In this document: positions 3,013-14,974 of the stretch, one piece after another
Layout: each line of letters begins with the position of its first letter
Position numbering within the stretch: the stretch's first letter is position 1
Origin: Bryobacteraceae bacterium
Lineage (GTDB): Bacteria > Acidobacteriota > Terriglobia > Bryobacterales > Bryobacteraceae
Assembly (NCBI GenBank): GCA_041485845.1
Contig: JBGPKH010000001.1
Span: forward strand, 1 to 51,446
Length of the DNA: 51,446 nt
Reading direction: 5' to 3'
Made by a program: the position numbers and the translations under genes
Notes under the pieces: model-generated
Told to the model about the DNA's origin: nothing
Databases searched by the model: none
Seen by the model: the letters and a program-made list of their open reading frames with translations, nothing else

Positions 3013-3909
3013 ATGGACTTCGATCAGCTTCACACGTTCCTCGAAATCGTCCGGCTGAAGAGTTTTTCGAAAGCCGCACAGACGTGTTACCGTACGCAGC
3101 CGGCCATCAGCGCCCAGGTGCGGCAGCTCGAGCAGGAACTCCACACCGAGCTGTTCGAGCGCTTCGGCAGCCGGATTTCACTCACCACGGCCGGCCGCAT
3201 CTTCGCCGAATACGCCGAGCAGTTACTCGATCTGCGCCGCCGCGCGCAGGACGCCATCGCCGAGCTGGAGACGAATCCCCGCGGCGAGCTGGTGATCGCG
3301 GCCAACGAAGCCACCTGCATCTACGTGCTGCCTGAGGTCTTTTCCGAATACCGGCAGCTCTTCCCGGCGGTGCAGCTCCAGGTCAACCGCTCCTTCGGGG
3401 CGCACGTAGTCGAAGCGGTGCTGGACAATTCGGCGGATTTCGGACTCACGCAACTGCCGGTGGAGGAGAAGCGCCTGCAAGTGGTGACCGTCCACAACGA
3501 CGAGATCCGGCTGATCGTTCCGGCGCGCCATGCGCTGGCCGACAAGAGGACGGTCAAGCCCGAGGATCTGGTGGAATACTACCTGGTGCTCCCCCAACAG
3601 GGAAAGACGCGCACGCGGCTGAATGAGTGGCTGTCGCCTGTGGAGGACGAAATCCGCATCTCCATGGAGCTGGACTCCACCGAAATGATGAAGCGGTTCG
3701 TCATGGCCGGGCTGGGAGTGAGCTTTCTGGCGGTCTCGAACTGCCGCGAGGAGATGGCCTCCGGAAAACTGCGCGCGGTGGCGCTTTCGCCGGAACCCAT
3801 GCTGCGCCGGTTGGGTTTAGTCTATCGTAAGGACAAGGCACTGTCGAAGGCCGCCCTGGGCTTCATCCAGGTCGTGCTGGATAATGTGAAAGACCGGGTG
3901 GTGGCTTGA
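3013..3909 (+). CDS. LysR-family transcriptional regulator
   Basis: 298 aa. The N-terminal wHTH reads LHTFLEIVRLKSFSKAAQTCYRTQPAISAQVRQLEQEL, followed by a LysR substrate-binding domain. Divergent from the TIGR03790 gene. Confidence 0.9.
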   Translation: MDFDQLHTFLEIVRLKSFSKAAQTCYRTQPAISAQVRQLEQELHTELFERFGSRISLTTAGRIFAEYAEQLLDLRRRAQDAIAELETNPRGELVIAANEATCIYVLPEVFSEYRQLFPAVQLQVNRSFGAHVVEAVLDNSADFGLTQLPVEEKRLQVVTVHNDEIRLIVPARHALADKRTVKPEDLVEYYLVLPQQGKTRTRLNEWLSPVEDEIRISMELDSTEMMKRFVMAGLGVSFLAVSNCREEMASGKLRAVALSPEPMLRRLGLVYRKDKALSKAALGFIQVVLDNVKDRVVA

Positions 3910-4343
3910 TGACTTGCAAACGCTGCCGGAAGAGCTTTGGAGCGGACCAAGCCCGCTGTCCGCATTGCGGGGAGCCGAAGCCGGACTCATCGGGGCTCTT
4001 CCAGACCTCGACCGTCCTGATCTCCGCTGAGGGGACGGACCAGGTCTACCGGTCGGTGGAGGACGTTCCGGCGCGCCTGCGAACCAAGCTGCTCAAGTCC
4101 ACCAACGGCGCCAACTCCGCCACCATCCTGATCGCCGACCAGCGGGGGCGGAAGGAAATCGCCAAGGCCATGCGCAACCTGCCGGGCCCCGCGCAACGCC
4201 GCCTGATGCACTCCATCCTCGGCGCCGAAGCTTCGCAAAACGCCCTGCGCTGGCTCACGCCGGGCCGCAAACGGGCGATTCTCGCCTTGGTTGGCGCACT
4301 CACCCTGGGGCTCATCGCGCTGGTATTCCTGCATCGCTGGTAG
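3909..4343 (+). CDS. Hypothetical membrane-anchored protein with N-terminal zinc-ribbon (CxxC...CxxC)
   Basis: MTCKRCRKSFGADQARCPHCGEP at the N-terminus and a C-terminal hydrophobic helix AILALVGALTLGLIALVFL. The start overlaps the LysR stop (TGATG). Confidence 0.6.
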   Translation: MTCKRCRKSFGADQARCPHCGEPKPDSSGLFQTSTVLISAEGTDQVYRSVEDVPARLRTKLLKSTNGANSATILIADQRGRKEIAKAMRNLPGPAQRRLMHSILGAEASQNALRWLTPGRKRAILALVGALTLGLIALVFLHRW

Positions 4344-4516
4344 CGCGACGTCCCATATACCGCTGACTTACGCGCGCGGCTCCGCATGCCGGTTCCGAGG
4401 CGCGACCGCGAGAAGCTGTGAAGAACTGTGGCCCGATTGGTTTTTTGGGCTTCGGAGGGAGCAGTTTGTCAGTTGTGCGCCCTACAGTTTTCCCGCGGTC
4501 CCACCGATTCTTGGGC

Positions 4517-4882
4517 ATGGACCAACGTCGTGAGCCCCGTTTCGCTACCAATCAATCCGTCGTCGTCACGGTTCTGGGCGAGCACGCCAGGCGGGAGACC
4601 GCCGTGGTGAAGAATGCTTCCGCCCGCGGACTGGCGATCGAGGTGCCGGGACCGATCGCTCCCGGTACTGCCCTCAAGATCGAATTCGAGGATTCGACGG
4701 TGCTGGGCGAAGCGGTATACTGCGGCGGCGGACCGGATTCCCATCTGGTGGGAGTGGAACTCGACCAGGTGATTTGCAGCTTGACTCAGCTTGGCAGGAA
4801 GCTACAGGAGTTTGCGGACGGGCGCAATGTCAGGACGGCAGGTGGCGCACGCCTTGAAAAACAGAACACGCCAATACCATGA
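4517..4882 (+). CDS. PilZ-domain protein
   Basis: MDQRREPRF (RxxxR) and VKNASARGLAI (D/N-x-S-x-x-G) are the two c-di-GMP-binding PilZ motifs. Start placed at ATG 4517 rather than the ORF-track 4418. Confidence 0.65.
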   Translation: MDQRREPRFATNQSVVVTVLGEHARRETAVVKNASARGLAIEVPGPIAPGTALKIEFEDSTVLGEAVYCGGGPDSHLVGVELDQVICSLTQLGRKLQEFADGRNVRTAGGARLEKQNTPIP

Positions 4883-4961
4883 GCAATCCCAGGAACAGCA
4901 GGATCGCCGCGTTATGCGCCACGCGGCCGCGCATCAGATTTGGGTGCAGGACTCTCCTCAT
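4830..4961 (-). CDS. Possible 43-aa small membrane protein
   Basis: Hand translation gives MRRVLHPNLMRGRVAHNAAILLFLGLLMVLACSVFQGVRHLPS*, with GGGGAG 6 nt upstream of the ATG and one hydrophobic helix. It is below the ORF-track cut-off and overlaps the 3' end of the PilZ ORF, so it is weak. Confidence 0.25.
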   Translation of the reverse strand: MRRVLHPNLMRGRVAHNAAILLFLGLLMVLACSVFQGVRHLPS

Positions 4962-5036
4962 CGGTTACTCCCCGGCCTCTGATTATATGAACGTAAGAGA
5001 AACCGCTGGGGTTACAGCGATGCGCTATCCTGTGAT

Positions 5037-5912
5037 GTGAATCGCAAAGCGGTGGTCTTTGGGGCCGCCGGACAGCTCGGCGTGGAGTTGGTCCGGGAGC
5101 TGAAAGCGCGGCAATACGAAGTCACGGGATGGCAGCGCTCCCAGGTAGATATCACGGACGCTGCCGCGGTGGAGAACGCGCTGGCCCGTTACGATGCTGA
5201 AGTAGTGTTCAATTCGGCGGCTTACAACCAGGTAGACGTAGCCGAAAAGGAACCCCAGGCGGCCTTCCTGGTGAACGGGCTGGCGGTGCGGAACCTGGCG
5301 CTGGCCTGCCGGCAGGTGGATGCCCGGCTGGTCCATTTCTCGACGGACTATGTGTTCGACGGGCTGGCCCGCCATCCTTATATCGAGGAAGATCCCACGC
5401 ACCCGCTGGGAGCCTATGCCGTTTCCAAACTGGCGGGTGAGCTCTACGCGCAGGCTTACCTGGATCGCGCCCTGGTGGTCCGGACGTCGGGGGTCTTCGG
5501 TCCCGGAGGGCTCTCGACCGCCCGCGGCAATTTTGTCGAGCTGATGCTGCGGCTGGCCGGGTCCAAGAATCCGATCCGCGTGGTGGAAGACCACGTGGCC
5601 TCTCCAACCTTCGCTCCGCTGTTGGCCGCCCGCACCGTCGATCTGGTGGAACGCGAGGTGGCGGGTGTCGTCCATGTAGGCGGGGGTACGCCCAGCTCGT
5701 GGTTCCACTTTGCGCGAACCATTTTCGAAGTGGCGGACCTACAGCCCATGCTGCTGGCCACCAACGAGCGGGAATACCGCACCTCGGCCCGCAGGCCGAA
5801 GTACTCGGCACTATCCAACGCCAAGATGGAGCGCTTGGGCCTGGAGCCTATGCCGCCGTTGCGCCAGGCCGTGGAAGCCTATTTCGCAGCTCGCGGCGCC
5901 CAAGGTTCTTAG
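5037..5912 (+). CDS. rfbD: dTDP-4-dehydrorhamnose reductase
   Basis: 291 aa with a GTG start. It has the Rossmann motif VVFGAAGQLG, then DITD...VFNSAAYNQVDVAEKEP..AF.VN, STDYVFDG, YAVSKLAGE (YxxxK), and an RmlD-type C-terminus. Confidence 0.85.
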   Translation: MNRKAVVFGAAGQLGVELVRELKARQYEVTGWQRSQVDITDAAAVENALARYDAEVVFNSAAYNQVDVAEKEPQAAFLVNGLAVRNLALACRQVDARLVHFSTDYVFDGLARHPYIEEDPTHPLGAYAVSKLAGELYAQAYLDRALVVRTSGVFGPGGLSTARGNFVELMLRLAGSKNPIRVVEDHVASPTFAPLLAARTVDLVEREVAGVVHVGGGTPSSWFHFARTIFEVADLQPMLLATNEREYRTSARRPKYSALSNAKMERLGLEPMPPLRQAVEAYFAARGAQGS

Positions 5913-8018: not shown

Positions 8019-8405
8019 ATGAGCCAGCCCGTGAAACTCTCCGACGGCCTGGTCCTCGAGGCGCGACTCGCAGGCGATATTTTGGAGCGTTCCATTGCGG
8101 GGCAGGTCGAATTCTGGGCGCGACTCGGCCGGTCCGTTGACCTGTTGCTCGAAGGACAGCAGGTATTGGCGTTGTGCCGGAGCGCCACGGCTCGCCCGCT
8201 GTCCGCCTGCCTGGAGGCCGTGGATTCTCAAAAAGGACGCCAGCGCGTCGCGGACTTCCTCCAAAGCCAGCCGTTTCCTCACTACGAACCACACCCCGAT
8301 CGCCGCGGCCTGCTGGTACGCATCGATCAGGATGGCCGGCGAACGGTGGGGCGCTTCGTGAATCGGCAGTTCCGCCCGGCAAGAGTCAAGGCCAGGCAGC
8401 GGTGA
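8019..8405 (+). CDS. ParD-like antitoxin (partner of zeta/AAA-kinase-like toxins)
   Basis: MSQPVKLSDGLVLEARLAGDILERSIAGQVEFWARLGR resembles the ParD-like family pattern (V.isdeL...A...A....RS.agQiEhWArlGr). The stop overlaps the start of the next gene (GTGA). Confidence 0.7.
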   Translation: MSQPVKLSDGLVLEARLAGDILERSIAGQVEFWARLGRSVDLLLEGQQVLALCRSATARPLSACLEAVDSQKGRQRVADFLQSQPFPHYEPHPDRRGLLVRIDQDGRRTVGRFVNRQFRPARVKARQR

Positions 8406-10941: not shown

Positions 10942-12873
10942 TCACTCCGCAATTCGCAGTTGAATCCGCGATCCGTCCTCGCCGCCGAAGTACACGCGCT
11001 GCATGGCCTTCACGAAGTCGCTCGACAAAGCCTTGGGGATCTCCATGAACTTCTGCGGATTGCGGTCGGTCAGCGGGAACCACGAGCTCTGAATCTGCAC
11101 CATGATGCGATGGCCCGGCCGGAACGTGTGCGCGATGTCGGGCAGGTTGAACGTGATGCGATCGGGCTTGCCGGGCTCGAAGGGCGCCGGCTTCTCGAAG
11201 CTCTTGCGGAACTTGCCGCGGAACGGCTCGCCGCGGATGAGCTGCTGGTAGCCTCCGATGGGAACCGGCGAGGGCGTGGCGGTTTGGCCGGGTTGCTGCG
11301 GGAGACTGTTGTAGTCGGGCGAATCGCCGGGATAGACATCGATCACCTTCACCACGAAGTCGGCATCGGTGCCGGTAGTGGAGACTTTCAGGTCCACCGA
11401 GATCGGTCCGAAGACATTCACGTCGCGATCCAGCACGCCGGTCTTGTAGACCAGCACGTCGGGACGCGCGGCGGCGAAGCGCTGGTCCTCGGTCATGTAG
11501 CTGTTGAGCACGCCCATGGTGACGCGGCCGATGTAGGGCACCGGCTTGTTCGGGTCGGCCAGGTATTCGTCAAATGCGGCTTGCGCGGGCTGCTGCCACG
11601 AGAGCTTGCCCTTGCCATCCAGATACAGGCTGGTGGGCCGGACATCGGGGGGAGGCCATTTCTCGAAACGGCGCCACTGGTTCATGCCGGTCTGAAAGAG
11701 GTACGCCCGCGGAAACTTTCCGTCGCCCTTGCCTTTCAGGTAGAACTGAAAGAACGGGAACTCGATCCTCTCTCGGTAGTACTGCGCGGTCTTCGACCCG
11801 AAGTTGACATTGCCCAAACGGTCGCCATCGCCGCGCGAGAAGCCGCCGTGGTTCCACGGACCCATGACCAGCATGTCCACGGCGGGCGGCGTGTTCTTCT
11901 CCATGAAGTCGAACTGGCGCAGAGGCCCTTGCGGATCTTCGGTGTCGTACCAGCCGCCCACCAGCATGACCGCGGGCTTGATGGCCTTCAAATGTTTCCA
12001 GATGGCGCGCGACTGCCACACTTCGTCGTAAGTGGTGTGGTCGATGTTCAGATTCCAATACGGCTGCTTGTGCTTGAAATACTTCTCGTCGGCATTGGCC
12101 AGCGAGCCCATCTCCAGATAAAACTCGTAGCCGTCTGGCGTGCCGTACTGAAACGGCAGCGTGGGCTGCGGCGGCGCGGGGTCGCCCTCGCGGCCGCGGA
12201 ATCCCATGTAAAAGCTGAAGCGGTGGGCCAGCATGAAGGCGCCGTTGTGATAAACGTCGTCGCCCATGTAGTAATCGGTGACGGGCGCCTGCGGGGCCAC
12301 CGCCACCAGCGCGGGATGCGCGTCGATCATGCCGGCGGTCACGTAAAAGCCCGGCTGCGAGATCCCGTACATCCCGGCCTTGCCGGTATTGCCGGGAACG
12401 TTCTTGACAAGCCAGTCGATGGTGTCGTAAGTGTCGGTGCTCTCGTCGGTGTCTTTGGGACCGCTCTTGTTGGGCTTGTGCGGGCGGATGAGGACGTAGT
12501 CGCCTTCGCTCATGAATCGGCCGCGGACGTCCTGGTAGGCGAAGATGTATTTCTCGCGAAAGAACAGTTCCGAAGGCCCGAGCGTGGCGCGGTACTGGTC
12601 GATGCCGTATGGCGCGACGTTGTAGCCGGTGCGCTGCATCAGGATGGGGTAGGTCCTGGCGTCGGTGAAGACGTCCTTGGGAACGTAGACGGAGGTGAAG
12701 AGCTTCACGCCATCGCGCATGGCGATGCGGTACTCGAATTTGGTGTAGTTCTCGCGAACGGCAGCGGCGCCCGGAGCGTTTGGGGGCGGCGCGGGTGTGG
12801 GCGCCGCGGCTCCGCCACGGCCCTGGGCGGCAAGCTGGGAAGCGAAGAGCAGCAAAGCGGACAAAGTGCGCAT
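10942..12873 (-). CDS. CocE/NonD-family hydrolase / Xaa-Pro dipeptidyl-peptidase (S15)
   Basis: Start at MRTLSALLLFASQLAAQ (signal peptide). ...IAMRDGVKLFTSVYVPKD...YPILMQRTGYNVAPYG, nucleophile region AGMYGISQPGFY, and a C-terminal beta-sandwich ending ...HRIMVQIQSSWFPL.DRNPQ. Confidence 0.9.
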   Translation of the reverse strand: MRTLSALLLFASQLAAQGRGGAAAPTPAPPPNAPGAAAVRENYTKFEYRIAMRDGVKLFTSVYVPKDVFTDARTYPILMQRTGYNVAPYGIDQYRATLGPSELFFREKYIFAYQDVRGRFMSEGDYVLIRPHKPNKSGPKDTDESTDTYDTIDWLVKNVPGNTGKAGMYGISQPGFYVTAGMIDAHPALVAVAPQAPVTDYYMGDDVYHNGAFMLAHRFSFYMGFRGREGDPAPPQPTLPFQYGTPDGYEFYLEMGSLANADEKYFKHKQPYWNLNIDHTTYDEVWQSRAIWKHLKAIKPAVMLVGGWYDTEDPQGPLRQFDFMEKNTPPAVDMLVMGPWNHGGFSRGDGDRLGNVNFGSKTAQYYRERIEFPFFQFYLKGKGDGKFPRAYLFQTGMNQWRRFEKWPPPDVRPTSLYLDGKGKLSWQQPAQAAFDEYLADPNKPVPYIGRVTMGVLNSYMTEDQRFAAARPDVLVYKTGVLDRDVNVFGPISVDLKVSTTGTDADFVVKVIDVYPGDSPDYNSLPQQPGQTATPSPVPIGGYQQLIRGEPFRGKFRKSFEKPAPFEPGKPDRITFNLPDIAHTFRPGHRIMVQIQSSWFPLTDRNPQKFMEIPKALSSDFVKAMQRVYFGGEDGSRIQLRIAE

Positions 12874-12906
12874 GGCGATTGAGTTGATTCTAGCCCAACC
12901 GTGGCC
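12804..12906. repeat. Direct repeat copy A (103 bp), the functional 5' end and upstream region of the S15 peptidase gene
   Basis: Hand alignment with 14473-14575 gives equal length, 97 of 103 identical, and all 6 differences are transitions. Confidence 0.9.
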
Positions 12907-13339: not shown

Positions 13340-13648
13340 ATGGTTCGCGCTAGCAGAACCGTTTTAGTCGAGTACAAAGAGGGTCGCTGGACGGTTCGCA
13401 GGGTGCTTTACAAGCGTGCGCCCCGAACCTTCGCCACCAAGTCCGAAGCGGTGGCAGCCGCCAAGGCCATCGCGCTCGCCACGCAGCCGAGTCAGGTCAC
13501 CATCATAGGCCGCGATGGCCGTCTGCAGCGTGGTTTTGTCTACGGTCTCCCCAGAATCCCGCGGTCTCCCTATAGGGGCGCGATTTCCGACCAAATCGAG
13601 CGCGCAGTCCTGAAGGTCTCCGACATGATGGAAGCCCGAGGCGAGTGA
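13340..13648 (+). CDS. DUF2188-like small protein
   Basis: 102 aa. ...GRWTVRRV....RTFATKSEAVAAAKAIALATQPSQVTIIGRDGRLQ fits the DUF2188 pattern (gW.V......f.t..eAi..A..iA......l.ihgrDGri). GAGGTG lies upstream. The stop overlaps the next start (GTGA). Confidence 0.55.
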   Translation: MVRASRTVLVEYKEGRWTVRRVLYKRAPRTFATKSEAVAAAKAIALATQPSQVTIIGRDGRLQRGFVYGLPRIPRSPYRGAISDQIERAVLKVSDMMEARGE

Positions 13649-14262
13649 GCGCTCCATTAGGTTCGCCGAACGTCTTCATCAATTGCCCTTTTGACAAGGC
13701 CTATCGGCCCGTGTTCGAGGCGGTGGTGTTCACGGTCTACAATCTCGGCTTCGCTCCCCGATGTGCGCTCGAGGTCGATGACGGCAGTCAGGTGCGCATT
13801 GAGAAGATCGCCACCATGATCGCTCAGTGCCCGTACGGCGTGCACGATCTATCGTGGGTCGGCATCGATCCCAAGACGCGGCTGCCCAGATTCAATATGC
13901 CGCTGGAGCTTGGACTGTACTTGGGATGCCAGAGGTTTGGCGGCAAATCGCAGCGCGCCAAGAACTGTCTGATATTGGATCGCCACCCGTTTCGATATCG
14001 AGCCTTCATGTCCGACATCTCGGGCCAGGACATCCACGCCTACAATGGAACGCCCAGGGGGGCAATTGCCGCCGTGCGGGATTGGCTCTGCGCCGCGTCC
14101 AAACGCGGCGAGTTGCCCGGCGGCGCCGAAATGTACGCCCGGTATTGCCTGTTCAGACGCCAACTGCCTGGAATGTGCCGCCAATTCAAGCGCCGCCCCT
14201 CCGAACTTACCTACATGGACTACTCCGAAATGGCGCTGATCTGGCTGAGCCGAAACCGTTAG
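13645..14262 (+). CDS. Uncharacterised protein with a TIR-like / nucleoside-2-deoxyribosyltransferase-like N-terminal domain (inference)
   Basis: 205 aa. The beta-alpha pattern VFINCPFDKAYRPVFEAVVFTVYNLGFAPRCALE..., RIEKIATMIAQCPYGVHDLS, and PRFNMPLELGLYLG (conserved Glu88) resembles flavodoxin-fold TIR-like domains. The C-terminal roughly 60 aa match nothing I know. Codon usage is host-like and the gene is coupled to the upstream gene. Confidence 0.6.
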   Translation: MSAPLGSPNVFINCPFDKAYRPVFEAVVFTVYNLGFAPRCALEVDDGSQVRIEKIATMIAQCPYGVHDLSWVGIDPKTRLPRFNMPLELGLYLGCQRFGGKSQRAKNCLILDRHPFRYRAFMSDISGQDIHAYNGTPRGAIAAVRDWLCAASKRGELPGGAEMYARYCLFRRQLPGMCRQFKRRPSELTYMDYSEMALIWLSRNR

Positions 14263-14472
14263 ACCTTGTTACGAAACAACGTTGCCGTAGGCTTTTTTCT
14301 TGGTGTTCCGGCCGCAGGCCCATTGGGCACTCCCTTCGGTCGCGTCCCGGCAGGAGGTAAGTTACTGCGCCGCGACCAAAGGGAGCGAGGAGAAGGTTGT
14401 TTCATGACGAGCCCCCTTAGTGCGGCACCAGCCGCCAATCGCTCCACCGGTTGAGCCTCTGGCCGGTGCGGC

Positions 14473-14575
14473 CCGCGGCTCCGCCACGGCCCTGGGCGGC
14501 AGGCTGGGAAGCGAAGAGCGGCAAAGCAGACAAAGTGCGCACGGCGATTGAGTTGATTCCAGCCCAACCGCGGCC
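14473..14575. repeat. Direct repeat copy B (103 bp), a dead duplicate of the peptidase 5' end
   Basis: See copy A. The peptidase ATG is GTG here, and the reading frame runs into unrelated sequence after the repeat boundary. ORF-track entries 14417-14605 and 14259-14567 are artefacts of this duplicate. Confidence 0.9.
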
Positions 14576-14629
14576 TATGCTTGGAGTGGCACTCAGTTCA
14601 TTCAATCATTTCAGGAAGGAACGTATCGC

Positions 14630-14974
14630 ATGGCAGAAACCGGCCTCAAAGGTCCCTTTGCGCTTACCGAACCGGCGCTCCAGCAGGAGGTGAACGAGAA
14701 GTCCCCGGGCGCTTACGCCCTGGATCAGTCCCACGATTCCGGCGGCTTCCACATCAGCTACGTCGGCCGGTCGGACACCGATGTGAACGAACGGCTGCGC
14801 CAGCACGTGGGCAAATACAAGCGCTTCAAGTTCGATTACTACGCGACCCCCAGGGATGCTTTCGACAAGGAATGCGGGCTCTACCACGACTTCAACCCGC
14901 CGGCCAAGATCAACCATCCCGAGCGGCCTTCGCACTCGGGGTGGAAATGCCCGCGGTGCAAGATCTTCGGGTAG
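14630..14974 (+). CDS. Small GIY-YIG-like nuclease-domain protein with C-terminal CxxC
   Basis: 114 aa. PGAYAL...HISYVGRSDTDVNERLRQHV (GIY...YIG-like with the conserved R), FDKECGLYHDF (catalytic-type Glu), NHPERP...WKCPRCKIFG. AGGAAGGA RBS upstream. Confidence 0.6.
   Translation: MAETGLKGPFALTEPALQQEVNEKSPGAYALDQSHDSGGFHISYVGRSDTDVNERLRQHVGKYKRFKFDYYATPRDAFDKECGLYHDFNPPAKINHPERPSHSGWKCPRCKIFG

Follow-up and report, generated by a model that had tools for sequence, protein, structure and literature searches.

TIR-domain hydrolases of NAD+ (nicotinamide adenine dinucleotide) are central immune effectors in bacteria, plants and animals, and NAD+ is likewise degraded by type II toxin-antitoxin (TA) systems, namely RES-Xre, including NatT-NatR, and MbcT-MbcA. 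The described enzymes closest to the subject of this study are the PF10137 TIR domains of CAP12 and Pycsar (pyrimidine cyclase system for antiphage resistance) proteins, with that of SfSTING (PDB entry 7un8) as the best point of comparison: its NADase pocket consists of R78 and N80 (phosphate/ribose), the catalytic E84 and D110, the last one supplied by the dimer mate (PMC9402430). The domain DUF2188 has also been tied to defence loci in the literature, by association only: it occurs in operons under the control of CapH/CapP, a DUF2188 protein has been listed as putative effector or component of Thoeris, and a DUF2188 gene adjoins a Pseudomonas CBASS (cyclic-oligonucleotide-based antiphage signalling system). 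Investigating a stretch of 51,446 nucleotides from a Bryobacteraceae bacterium (Acidobacteriota; assembly GCA_041485845.1, contig JBGPKH010000001.1, positions 1 to 51,446 of the forward strand; this whole stretch is called the window below), we observed a pair of overlapping genes, which encode a DUF2188 protein of 102 amino acids (aa), the partner, and a 205-aa protein belonging to a large unannotated TIR-like family, the enzyme. This pair is a real, widespread and unannotated two-gene cassette, and the conserved feature of the partner is not the DUF2188 domain, but a terminal peptide of about 30 aa, to which we refer as the tag.

Both genes are located on the plus strand. The partner gene (13340..13648) has an ATG start and encodes a protein in which a DUF2188 core is joined by a Pro-rich linker to a helical tag at the C-terminus; the enzyme gene (13645..14262) has a GTG start, which is laid over the TGA stop of the partner gene, so that the two are translationally coupled through a GTGA overlap (13645..13648), as read directly from the sequence. 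A GAGG stands a few bases 5' of this GTG, and the position of the start codon is matched by a Val or Met start in the closest homologues. The coupled pair claimed in the original prediction is therefore confirmed, both open reading frames (ORFs) being present as described there and the overlap recurring in relatives: the junction of partner and enzyme measures -4 nucleotides (nt) in 12 loci, in a further 10 it is +3 nt, and junctions of -4 or +2 to +5 nt on the same strand are found in dozens of related loci. A small gene which overlaps or abuts a larger one, and which is conserved while the context varies, is also the gene arrangement of type II TA systems. With the NAD+-degrading systems among them (RES-Xre, MbcT-MbcA) our pair further shares a small upstream gene coupled to the larger enzyme gene, the predicted destruction of NAD+ and a scattered, mobile, multi-copy occurrence that extends over chromosomes, plasmids and transposons. 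The toxin fold, however, is unrelated, being TIR-like here, but RES-like or ADP-ribosyltransferase (ART)-like there, and no recognised DNA-binding domain was seen in the partner, neither by the fold search with its DUF2188 part nor by family scans of partners consisting of the tag alone. Unlike in classical TA systems, the tag is moreover sometimes carried by large enzymes encoded downstream.

The enzyme was modelled with AlphaFold from a 35-sequence alignment (predicted local distance difference test, pLDDT, 84.3; predicted template modelling score, pTM, 0.84). The model comprises a flavodoxin-fold domain of the TIR/NDT (nucleoside 2'-deoxyribosyltransferase) type at residues 9-132 (13669..14040; predicted order b1-a1-b2-a2-b3-a3-b4-b5) and a C-terminal three-helix domain at residues 137-203 (14053..14253; helices 137-151, 160-180 and 190-203, pLDDT 90-97). 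The proposal that the protein contains such a domain agrees with its best structural neighbours, which are TIR domains and NDTs, at marginal scores. In the Foldseek comparison with the PDB, the TIR domain of SPARTA TIR-APAZ came first (E 6.5e-4, TM 0.51), the SfSTING TIR was retrieved with E 1.4e-2 and a probability of 1.00, the IL-1RAcPb TIR was listed as well, and the NDTs 9emx_B, 8qc0_A and 8pqr together with the CMP hydrolase MilB (4jem_B) reached TM values of 0.43-0.49. The same two groups emerged from the fold search in BFVD: a CAP12/Pycsar TIR protein (E 4.3e-4) and several viral NDTs.

Residue conservation was assessed in an alignment of 81 sequences, whose members are 34-54% identical to the window protein. 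Invariant are N13, R51, D68, S70, N84, E88, G90, S123, D124 and G127, and R82 is conserved in at least 90%. Many of these residues fall into two places: the motif R82-F-N84-M-P-L-E88-L-G90, predicted to be catalytic and located where helix a3 begins (13888..13914), in which N84, E88 and G90 do not vary, and the loop S123-D124-I-S-G127 (14011..14025) with its invariant S123, D124 and G127, which aligns with T-D110-L-D-G of 7un8_A (the numbering of this chain is offset by +8 against that of the SfSTING paper). R82, N84, E88 and D124 thereby align with R78, N80, E84 and D110 of SfSTING. Glu88, singled out in the original prediction for its invariant look, is thus invariant indeed and stands opposite the catalytic Glu84, and the other motifs quoted there are all present. 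Within the C-terminal domain R145, L148 and F170 are nearly invariant, and the domain is kept in all fusion proteins; it is a candidate for a regulatory or tag-binding domain.

At the level of sequence profiles, PF10137 is matched by 30 of the 81 members (E up to 1, best 4.2e-4), any other Pfam family by two members at most, in one fusion protein the PF10137 match lies inside the family domain, and P0225 reaches 18.3 bits against a threshold of 24.7. The profile made from the 81 sequences found a single match in the PDB, again the SfSTING TIR-STING protein, over the core motif and with E 0.45. Canonical TIR profiles (PF01582, PF13676) did not match the family domain in any of the 81 members, TIR_2 being present only as a separate N-terminal fusion domain, and neither did the NDT profiles (PF05014 and relatives). 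The expected kinship with PF10137 is thus supported, weakly but consistently, by the family as a whole, the window protein itself having no match; the profile results indicate a family that is a distant relative of PF10137 without being a member by the Pfam threshold. With the PF10137 TIRs it has in common the flavodoxin-like fold, an aligned core motif (PR-x-N-xxx-E-x-G-L-F-L-G) in which the equivalents of R78, N80, E84 and D110 are kept, and, in Poribacteria, members paired with a CD-NTase as for a CBASS effector. It differs from them by having no STING, SAVED or cyclic-nucleotide-monophosphate (cNMP)-binding sensor and by its own, unique three-helix C-terminal domain. We regard the 205-aa protein as a divergent member of the TIR superfamily, an enzyme whose pocket is intact and resembles that of SfSTING, and, judging from the aligned residues, as a probable NAD+-cleaving enzyme.

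The partner is a DUF2188 protein, as had been suggested: residues 12-63 (13373..13528; predicted beta-beta-beta-alpha-beta-beta fold) match Pfam DUF2188 (PF09954) with E 1.5e-10 and 41.5 bits, above the gathering cut-off of 22. In its AlphaFold model (pLDDT 72) a core at residues 7-68 (pLDDT about 80-89) is followed by a Pro-rich linker (69-78) and by a helix at residues 79-99, which is separate from the core and has a pLDDT of 52-60. PADLOC assigns the partner to the single-gene candidate PDC-S16 (E 2.3e-10), and it matches none of its models with the enzyme. The match to PDC-S16 and the repeated occurrence of DUF2188 near CBASS, Thoeris and CapH/CapP loci connect our pair with these operons; PDC-S16, however, is a single-gene candidate without a TIR-like partner, whereas DUF2188 is here one of several carriers of the tag. 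The partner evolves fast, is small, basic and encoded upstream, and only 6 word-level homologues were found for it, against more than 7,900 for the enzyme.

No neighbour other than the small partner is conserved around the 96 family genes in the loci fetched for comparison (cited below by L numbers, proteins by P numbers). A DUF2188-like gene stands beside 55 of them (44 upstream, 11 downstream) and was undetected in 40. What had been described as pairing with DUF2188 therefore stands as far as the conserved small upstream gene amid varying neighbours is concerned; DUF2188 itself is next to only about half of the loci. We rejected DUF2188 as the universal partner, since at the species level, too, it is found at about half of the loci and the common element is a tag outside the DUF2188 core.

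In the window partner this tag is the C-terminal helix, Y68-GLPRIPRSPYRGAISDQIERAVLKVSDMM-96 (residues 68-96, 13541..13627, YGLPRIPRSPYRGAISDQIERAVLKVSDMM), a proposed docking peptide detected by the tag hidden Markov model (HMM) with E 1.4e-11. It follows the pattern …PPKRGxLxxxxIxRAVxKV…R over about 30 aa, and the consensus of the family-wide HMM is YGLRKIQSPPKRGSLTRAEIRRAVEKVALERLA. The relation became visible in Poribacteria, whose downstream partners are very different proteins with a common N-terminal start, MARERIVKDTPKRGKLTERQIQRAVEKV, matching the C-terminal tails of acidobacterial DUF2188 proteins. With the iterated HMM, 764 kb were scanned in six frames, which gave 82 matches: 78 of these directly adjoin a family gene on the same strand, and 62 of the 81 species-level family genes are tagged in this way (50 upstream, 12 downstream). 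In most of the untagged loci a short basic ORF ends at the start of the family gene, and reading these ORFs reveals a recognisably divergent tag, for example MPSRTIPPPLKRGTRTPEEIRAAVRKVMAER, TGRFVKSPAKAGSVKYRQVDRAVKTVARRR or, in Microbulbifer, AKVLKPAKSGKVTRSVAVAAVKKVV; the copies on alphaproteobacterial plasmids have a short ORF with a divergent tag as well. As some tags form the N-terminus of a protein encoded downstream, the ribosome-binding region cannot account for the conservation of the tag.

A search with the tag profile in a large protein database returned only small proteins, 59 in number, unannotated and 44-76 aa long, whereas carriers with several domains were not retrieved. When four of these 59 were picked without reference to the enzyme, three were found to precede a family gene directly, one of them frameshifted. 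In L094 (2711-3335) the family gene behind a tag-only protein is split into ORFs of 48 and 162 aa, the frameshift likely marking a pseudogene or a sequencing error. The spacing I..AV..V places the most conserved residues on one hydrophobic face of the tag helix, and this face together with the low pLDDT of the helix fits a peptide that folds onto a binding partner. The tag would accordingly dock physically onto the 205-aa enzyme; among the longer homologues no natural fusion of tag and enzyme was seen.

Two loci deserve a separate mention. In L091 (2501-4430) a poribacterial-type tag-only protein of 73 aa has no family gene within 2.5 kb; next to it are encoded, downstream, a 112-aa protein resembling RelE/ParE and a TPR protein. 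Tags may accordingly be able to act in trans, too, or together with other partners. In L065 (4606-6947) three small paralogues of 83-129 aa are encoded behind a single family gene, each with an N-terminal tag and a conserved C-terminal 'ARDAKTGRFVSR…VVETVKKPKR' element; a TGRF[VI] element adjoins the tag in other phyla too (L047, L070, L029, L097).

The proteins carrying the tag are of different nature. DUF2188 proteins are its carriers in the window, in many Acidobacteriota and in L066 and L084, and bare basic peptides of 50-90 aa in many phyla; these tag-only partners are very basic and matched no family. In Poribacteria the tag is found on a CBASS-type oligonucleotide cyclase (L077, L089; E 1e-124 for Cyclase in PADLOC, and above the Pfam threshold for DncV-like NTase) and on a ThsB-type TIR (L076; Pfam E 7.9e-21). 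A TPR protein (L072) and two proteins of unknown type (L036, L053) carry it as well. Cyclase, ThsB TIR and TPR protein have it at the N-terminus, and so do DUF2188 proteins other than that of the window. No other effector lies near the two cyclase loci, whose neighbours include an Eco57I-type restriction-modification (RM) gene, TnpB and a DUF433/DUF5615 TA pair. Yet another carrier, a 204-aa protein of unknown fold, was observed in L005, and the same acidobacterial arrangement is seen in L005 and L007-L010 (about 280-1820): 2 kb upstream of the orthologous pair there is a further paralogue of the family, P0005 (207 aa), which is preceded by the tagged 204-aa protein (C-terminus …DFGLPRIQKHPDRSTIGANLIERAVETVSEMKGD) and a 98-aa ORF.

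These carriers bear on the comparison with known immune systems. A small tag-bearing partner distinguishes the family from known CBASS and Pycsar effectors, and the window contains no cyclase. To Thoeris and to stand-alone TIR or bSEFIR proteins it is connected by the TIR-superfamily chemistry implicated, by the one tagged ThsB-type partner and by several proteins in which the family domain is fused to an N-terminal TIR_2 or bSEFIR domain; it is set apart from Thoeris by the proposed partnership through a peptide tag and by the fact that neither window protein matches the PADLOC models of ThsA and ThsB. The statement that none of the usual partners is present is correct for the window, where neither a cyclase (by the CBASS criterion) nor ThsB was found near the pair and no ThsA, SIR2 or SLOG effector anywhere; it does not extend to the relatives in Poribacteria, where the pairing is with a CBASS-type cyclase or a ThsB TIR, each bearing the tag.

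The family is large. A word-indexed search returned 7,934 significant homologues of the 205-aa protein, nearly all of about 205 aa and all 'hypothetical', and by an exhaustive profile search 3,303 clusters at 50% identity were counted, 710 of them below E 1e-30. By sequence, the protein has no match in Pfam, NCBIfam, PADLOC or the PDB, in line with the undescribed status proposed for it; the link to PF10137 and SfSTING emerged only from profiles and from scans of many members. More than 568 family loci were confirmed in species-representative genomes, with a patchy distribution over many phyla: Acidobacteriota (Bryobacterales, Terriglobia, Thermoanaerobaculia, Aminicenantes), Planctomycetota, Poribacteria, Nitrospirota and Verrucomicrobiota, and also Desulfobacterota, Actinomycetota, Chlorobium, Bacteroidota, Gemmatimonadota and Gammaproteobacteria (Microbulbifer sp. 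HZ11). The closest relatives of the window gene belong to the Bryobacteraceae. Several copies per genome occur, with two loci in each of two metagenome-assembled genomes and tandem copies in L005 and L069.

Family members were also found on 17 plasmids from cultured Alphaproteobacteria. On one of these (L097, Sphingomonas aliaeris plasmid NZ_CP061036.1, 1-4618) the pair stands directly downstream of genes for a Mu-type transposase (TniA), TniB, TniQ, an HU-family protein and a serine protease, and it is apparently cargo of a Tn7/Tn5053-like transposon. A phage origin was considered and rejected, INPHARED giving no matches and IMG/VR only 5 loci. Single loci lie near RM, TA, NACHT or integrase genes (in L004, for example, integrase, PIN, MazE and resolvase), and the flanking genes are unrelated between lineages. 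An enrichment in defence islands was not found: the 137 nearest non-partner neighbours of the species-level loci are mostly of housekeeping or metabolic type, in a tally made without formal control. The module therefore behaves like a scattered, self-contained cassette and not like a typical resident of defence islands. In two loci of Aminicenantes type (L093 and L095, about 3400-5213) we noted a large NACHT (STAND NTPase) gene convergent just past the module; L095 has, in addition, TA genes for SocA_Panacea and an MNT-type nucleotidyltransferase upstream.

The reading we prefer, itself evenly balanced between belief and doubt, takes the pair as a self-contained, horizontally mobile two-gene conflict module of TA-like or abortive-infection type, in which the tag docks onto the NADase and controls it. 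The TIR-like enzyme would oligomerise and hydrolyse NAD+ or a related nucleotide, D124 being supplied across the dimer; the partner, co-translated with it by means of the GTGA overlap, would bind it with the amphipathic C-terminal helix of the tag (residues about 68-96) and keep it off; a trigger by which the partner is taken away, degraded or remodelled would then release the enzyme. The DUF2188 core would then be an exchangeable input or regulatory domain. An inhibitory role of the partner is favoured because in many phyla it consists of little more than the tag, and because it evolves fast and is encoded upstream, in overlap with the enzyme gene. Several points weigh against this reading. 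Only 2 integrases and 2 helix-turn-helix (HTH) proteins are found among the 137 nearest neighbours, and the enzyme is about 50% identical across phyla, unusually conserved for a protein engaged in conflict. The scores of the fold searches are marginal (best E 6.5e-4, TM about 0.5), with CheY and flavodoxin folds also listed, none of the sequence links to TIR families reaches the curated cut-off, and no Pfam family is matched by the window protein itself. The DUF2188 model gave no significant structural neighbour in a fold search against the PDB, and thus no functional clue. Finally, the tagged partners in Poribacteria are signal-making enzymes, which would fit an activating partner better.

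It is these tagged cyclase and ThsB partners that prompted the opposite reading, by which the partner is a sensor or activator: the tag would tether an input protein to a latent NADase, to be activated by a nucleotide signal made in cis or by a conformational change, as a minimal immunity of CBASS or Thoeris type. We consider this unlikely, though it is the main rival. A tagged bona fide CBASS cyclase does follow the family gene in Poribacteria, with RM, TnpB and TA genes as neighbours and without another effector nearby, tagged ThsB TIR and TPR proteins exist, DUF2188 has been listed as putative Thoeris component and occurs in operons under CapH/CapP, and the conserved C-terminal helical domain of the enzyme could serve as receiver. 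An inhibitor, however, is the better fit to the 50-90 aa tag-only partners of many phyla, which have no sensor or enzyme domain; neither a cyclase nor ThsB is near the window pair, and the census gave no enrichment in defence islands. More improbable is a reversal of roles, in which the TIR-like protein would produce a signal like ThsB and DUF2188 or another tagged protein would be the effector or receptor. Many bacterial TIR proteins make signals derived from ADP-ribose (ADPR), and DUF2188 has been proposed as putative Thoeris effector and is a stand-alone candidate of PADLOC (PDC-S16); but no plausible effector activity is to be expected from partners made of the tag alone or from a DUF2188 core of about 60 aa, the nearest relatives of the enzyme (PF10137, SfSTING TIR) are effectors, and the tagged cyclase and ThsB partners produce signals themselves, which makes this reading highly improbable.

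A role outside of conflict was also weighed: the 205-aa protein could be an N-glycosidase or transferase of the NDT/MilB/Rcl type, acting on nucleosides or nucleotides in salvage or modified-base metabolism, with the partner as regulatory subunit. In the NDT superfamily helix 3 starts with a Glu followed by a Gly, an acidic or amide residue standing four positions ahead of the Glu, and the 205-aa family appears to share this pattern; the fold matches to NDTs, MilB and viral NDTs, the Rossmann-like fold class and the equivalent position of the Glu, the unusually good conservation and the housekeeping neighbours point in the same direction. Against it, none of the 81 members matches PF05014 or related families, while 30 match PF10137, so that a kinship in sequence is not seen; residue by residue, the agreement is with the NADase pocket of SfSTING, the Asp acting in trans included; the associated or fused domains are of immune and not of metabolic type (CD-NTase, ThsB, TIR_2, bSEFIR); and the family is patchily distributed, in several copies and on plasmids or transposons. 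We therefore judge a metabolic enzyme of this type improbable. The tag might, instead of docking, be a substrate, with the enzyme covalently modifying one of its residues (for example by ADP-ribosylation) and so regulating the carrier: the tag is portable and terminal, it has conserved Arg, Lys, Ser and Thr positions, and both the several tagged proteins after one enzyme gene (L065) and the isolated tagged protein (L091) suggest action in trans, with many targets. Its most conserved positions, however, form a hydrophobic helix face (I..AV..V), which is typical of a binding interface, and the known TIR-family enzymes are hydrolases, cyclases and base-exchange enzymes, not protein ADP-ribosyltransferases; we find a substrate role scarcely credible. 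As for two unlinked neighbours or spurious ORFs, the window is GC-rich with many spurious ORFs, but the conserved homologues, an adjacency and 4-nt overlap recurring across phyla and a tag found almost exclusively beside family genes make this negligible.

Going beyond the docking and control assumed in our preferred reading, the tag might be a portable docking element working as plug and socket, by which varied immune inputs (CD-NTase, ThsB TIR, TPR protein, DUF2188, bare peptides) are wired to one highly conserved TIR-like NADase. We put this forward tentatively, as a possibility which we doubt more than we believe. If true, sensor and effector would be coupled by protein contact and not solely by a diffusible second messenger, and bacterial immunity would gain, besides a new family of TIR effectors, an adaptor principle not described before.

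Small conflict modules with an NADase effector of TIR type are already known as a kind of system; the family itself is uncatalogued. In the literature searched, which did not cover the possibly relevant study of Burroughs & Aravind 2020, no description of the family or of a tag-mediated pairing with interchangeable partners was found. Pfam, NCBIfam and PADLOC 2.0 miss a family that counts thousands of members, spread over more than a dozen phyla and present on plasmids as well. Should the enzyme be an NADase, it would represent a compact effector type of 205 aa with a regulatory domain of its own. The tag marks the cognate partner whatever its other domains are and therefore provides a simple sequence rule for finding partners; at the same time, it would give experimental access to the way in which a TIR enzyme is held inactive or becomes activated. 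For DUF2188, hitherto unexplained near CBASS and Thoeris loci, the pairing through the tag is a first concrete functional context.

The surroundings of the pair were described in the original prediction as a repeat-bracketed insertion next to a small GIY-YIG gene. The bracket is real: a direct repeat of 110 nt is present in a left copy (12797..12906) and a right copy (14466..14575), which are 92% identical, and no third copy was found in the window. Its role as an insertion boundary is weakened, as the right copy is also located upstream of the GIY-YIG-like gene in the closest relative, L005, so that the repeats do not cleanly delimit an insertion; for the same reason we did not accept the bracket as proof of mobility. 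In a blastn comparison, window positions 14487-14974 align with L005 at 79%, and L005 4653-4736 matches the left copy at 84.5%. The 110-nt repeats are a record of local rearrangement and not clean insertion boundaries. On the minus strand the left copy encodes the start and the signal peptide, MRTLSALLLFASQLAAQ, of a Peptidase_S15/PepX_C gene (10942-12873), which takes its start codon from this copy; the right copy holds a decayed pseudo-N-terminus on the minus strand, with the ATG changed to GTG (ORF 14417-14605). The secreted peptidase appears to share, or to have borrowed, its 5' end with a sequence located upstream of the GIY-YIG-like gene in relatives.

The GIY-YIG-like ORF itself (14630..14974, plus strand, 114 aa) is indeed there and matches the PADLOC candidate PDC-S14 with E 7.9e-6; its assignment to GIY-YIG in Pfam stays below threshold (E 0.033; 14.9 bits against 22.6). 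Being found downstream of the pair only in the near-identical loci L005-L010 (79% nucleotide identity), and not in other lineages, it probably lies outside the module. Scans for promoters and terminators and an Rfam search around the pair yielded no matches, tRNA genes were not found in the window, and a slight GC dip over the pair is uninformative. The impression of a window rich in TA genes proved weak, the 51 kb containing one MazE-like/PIN pair and one ParD-like gene: the latter is a ParD-like antitoxin gene at 8019-8405, for which no toxin partner was identified, and the former, a MazE-like antitoxin and a PIN toxin of VapBC type at 1156-1817, overlap by 4 nt.

Among the family members, P0207, P0163 and P0140 have an extra conserved C-terminal part of about 100 aa (…SFVILxxxxSGLSYMQ…LEYQEGSLDEHYxC…), which has no Pfam match, and in P0200 the family domain is followed by Response_reg and Trans_reg_C domains, an arrangement that may be a fusion created by gene calling.

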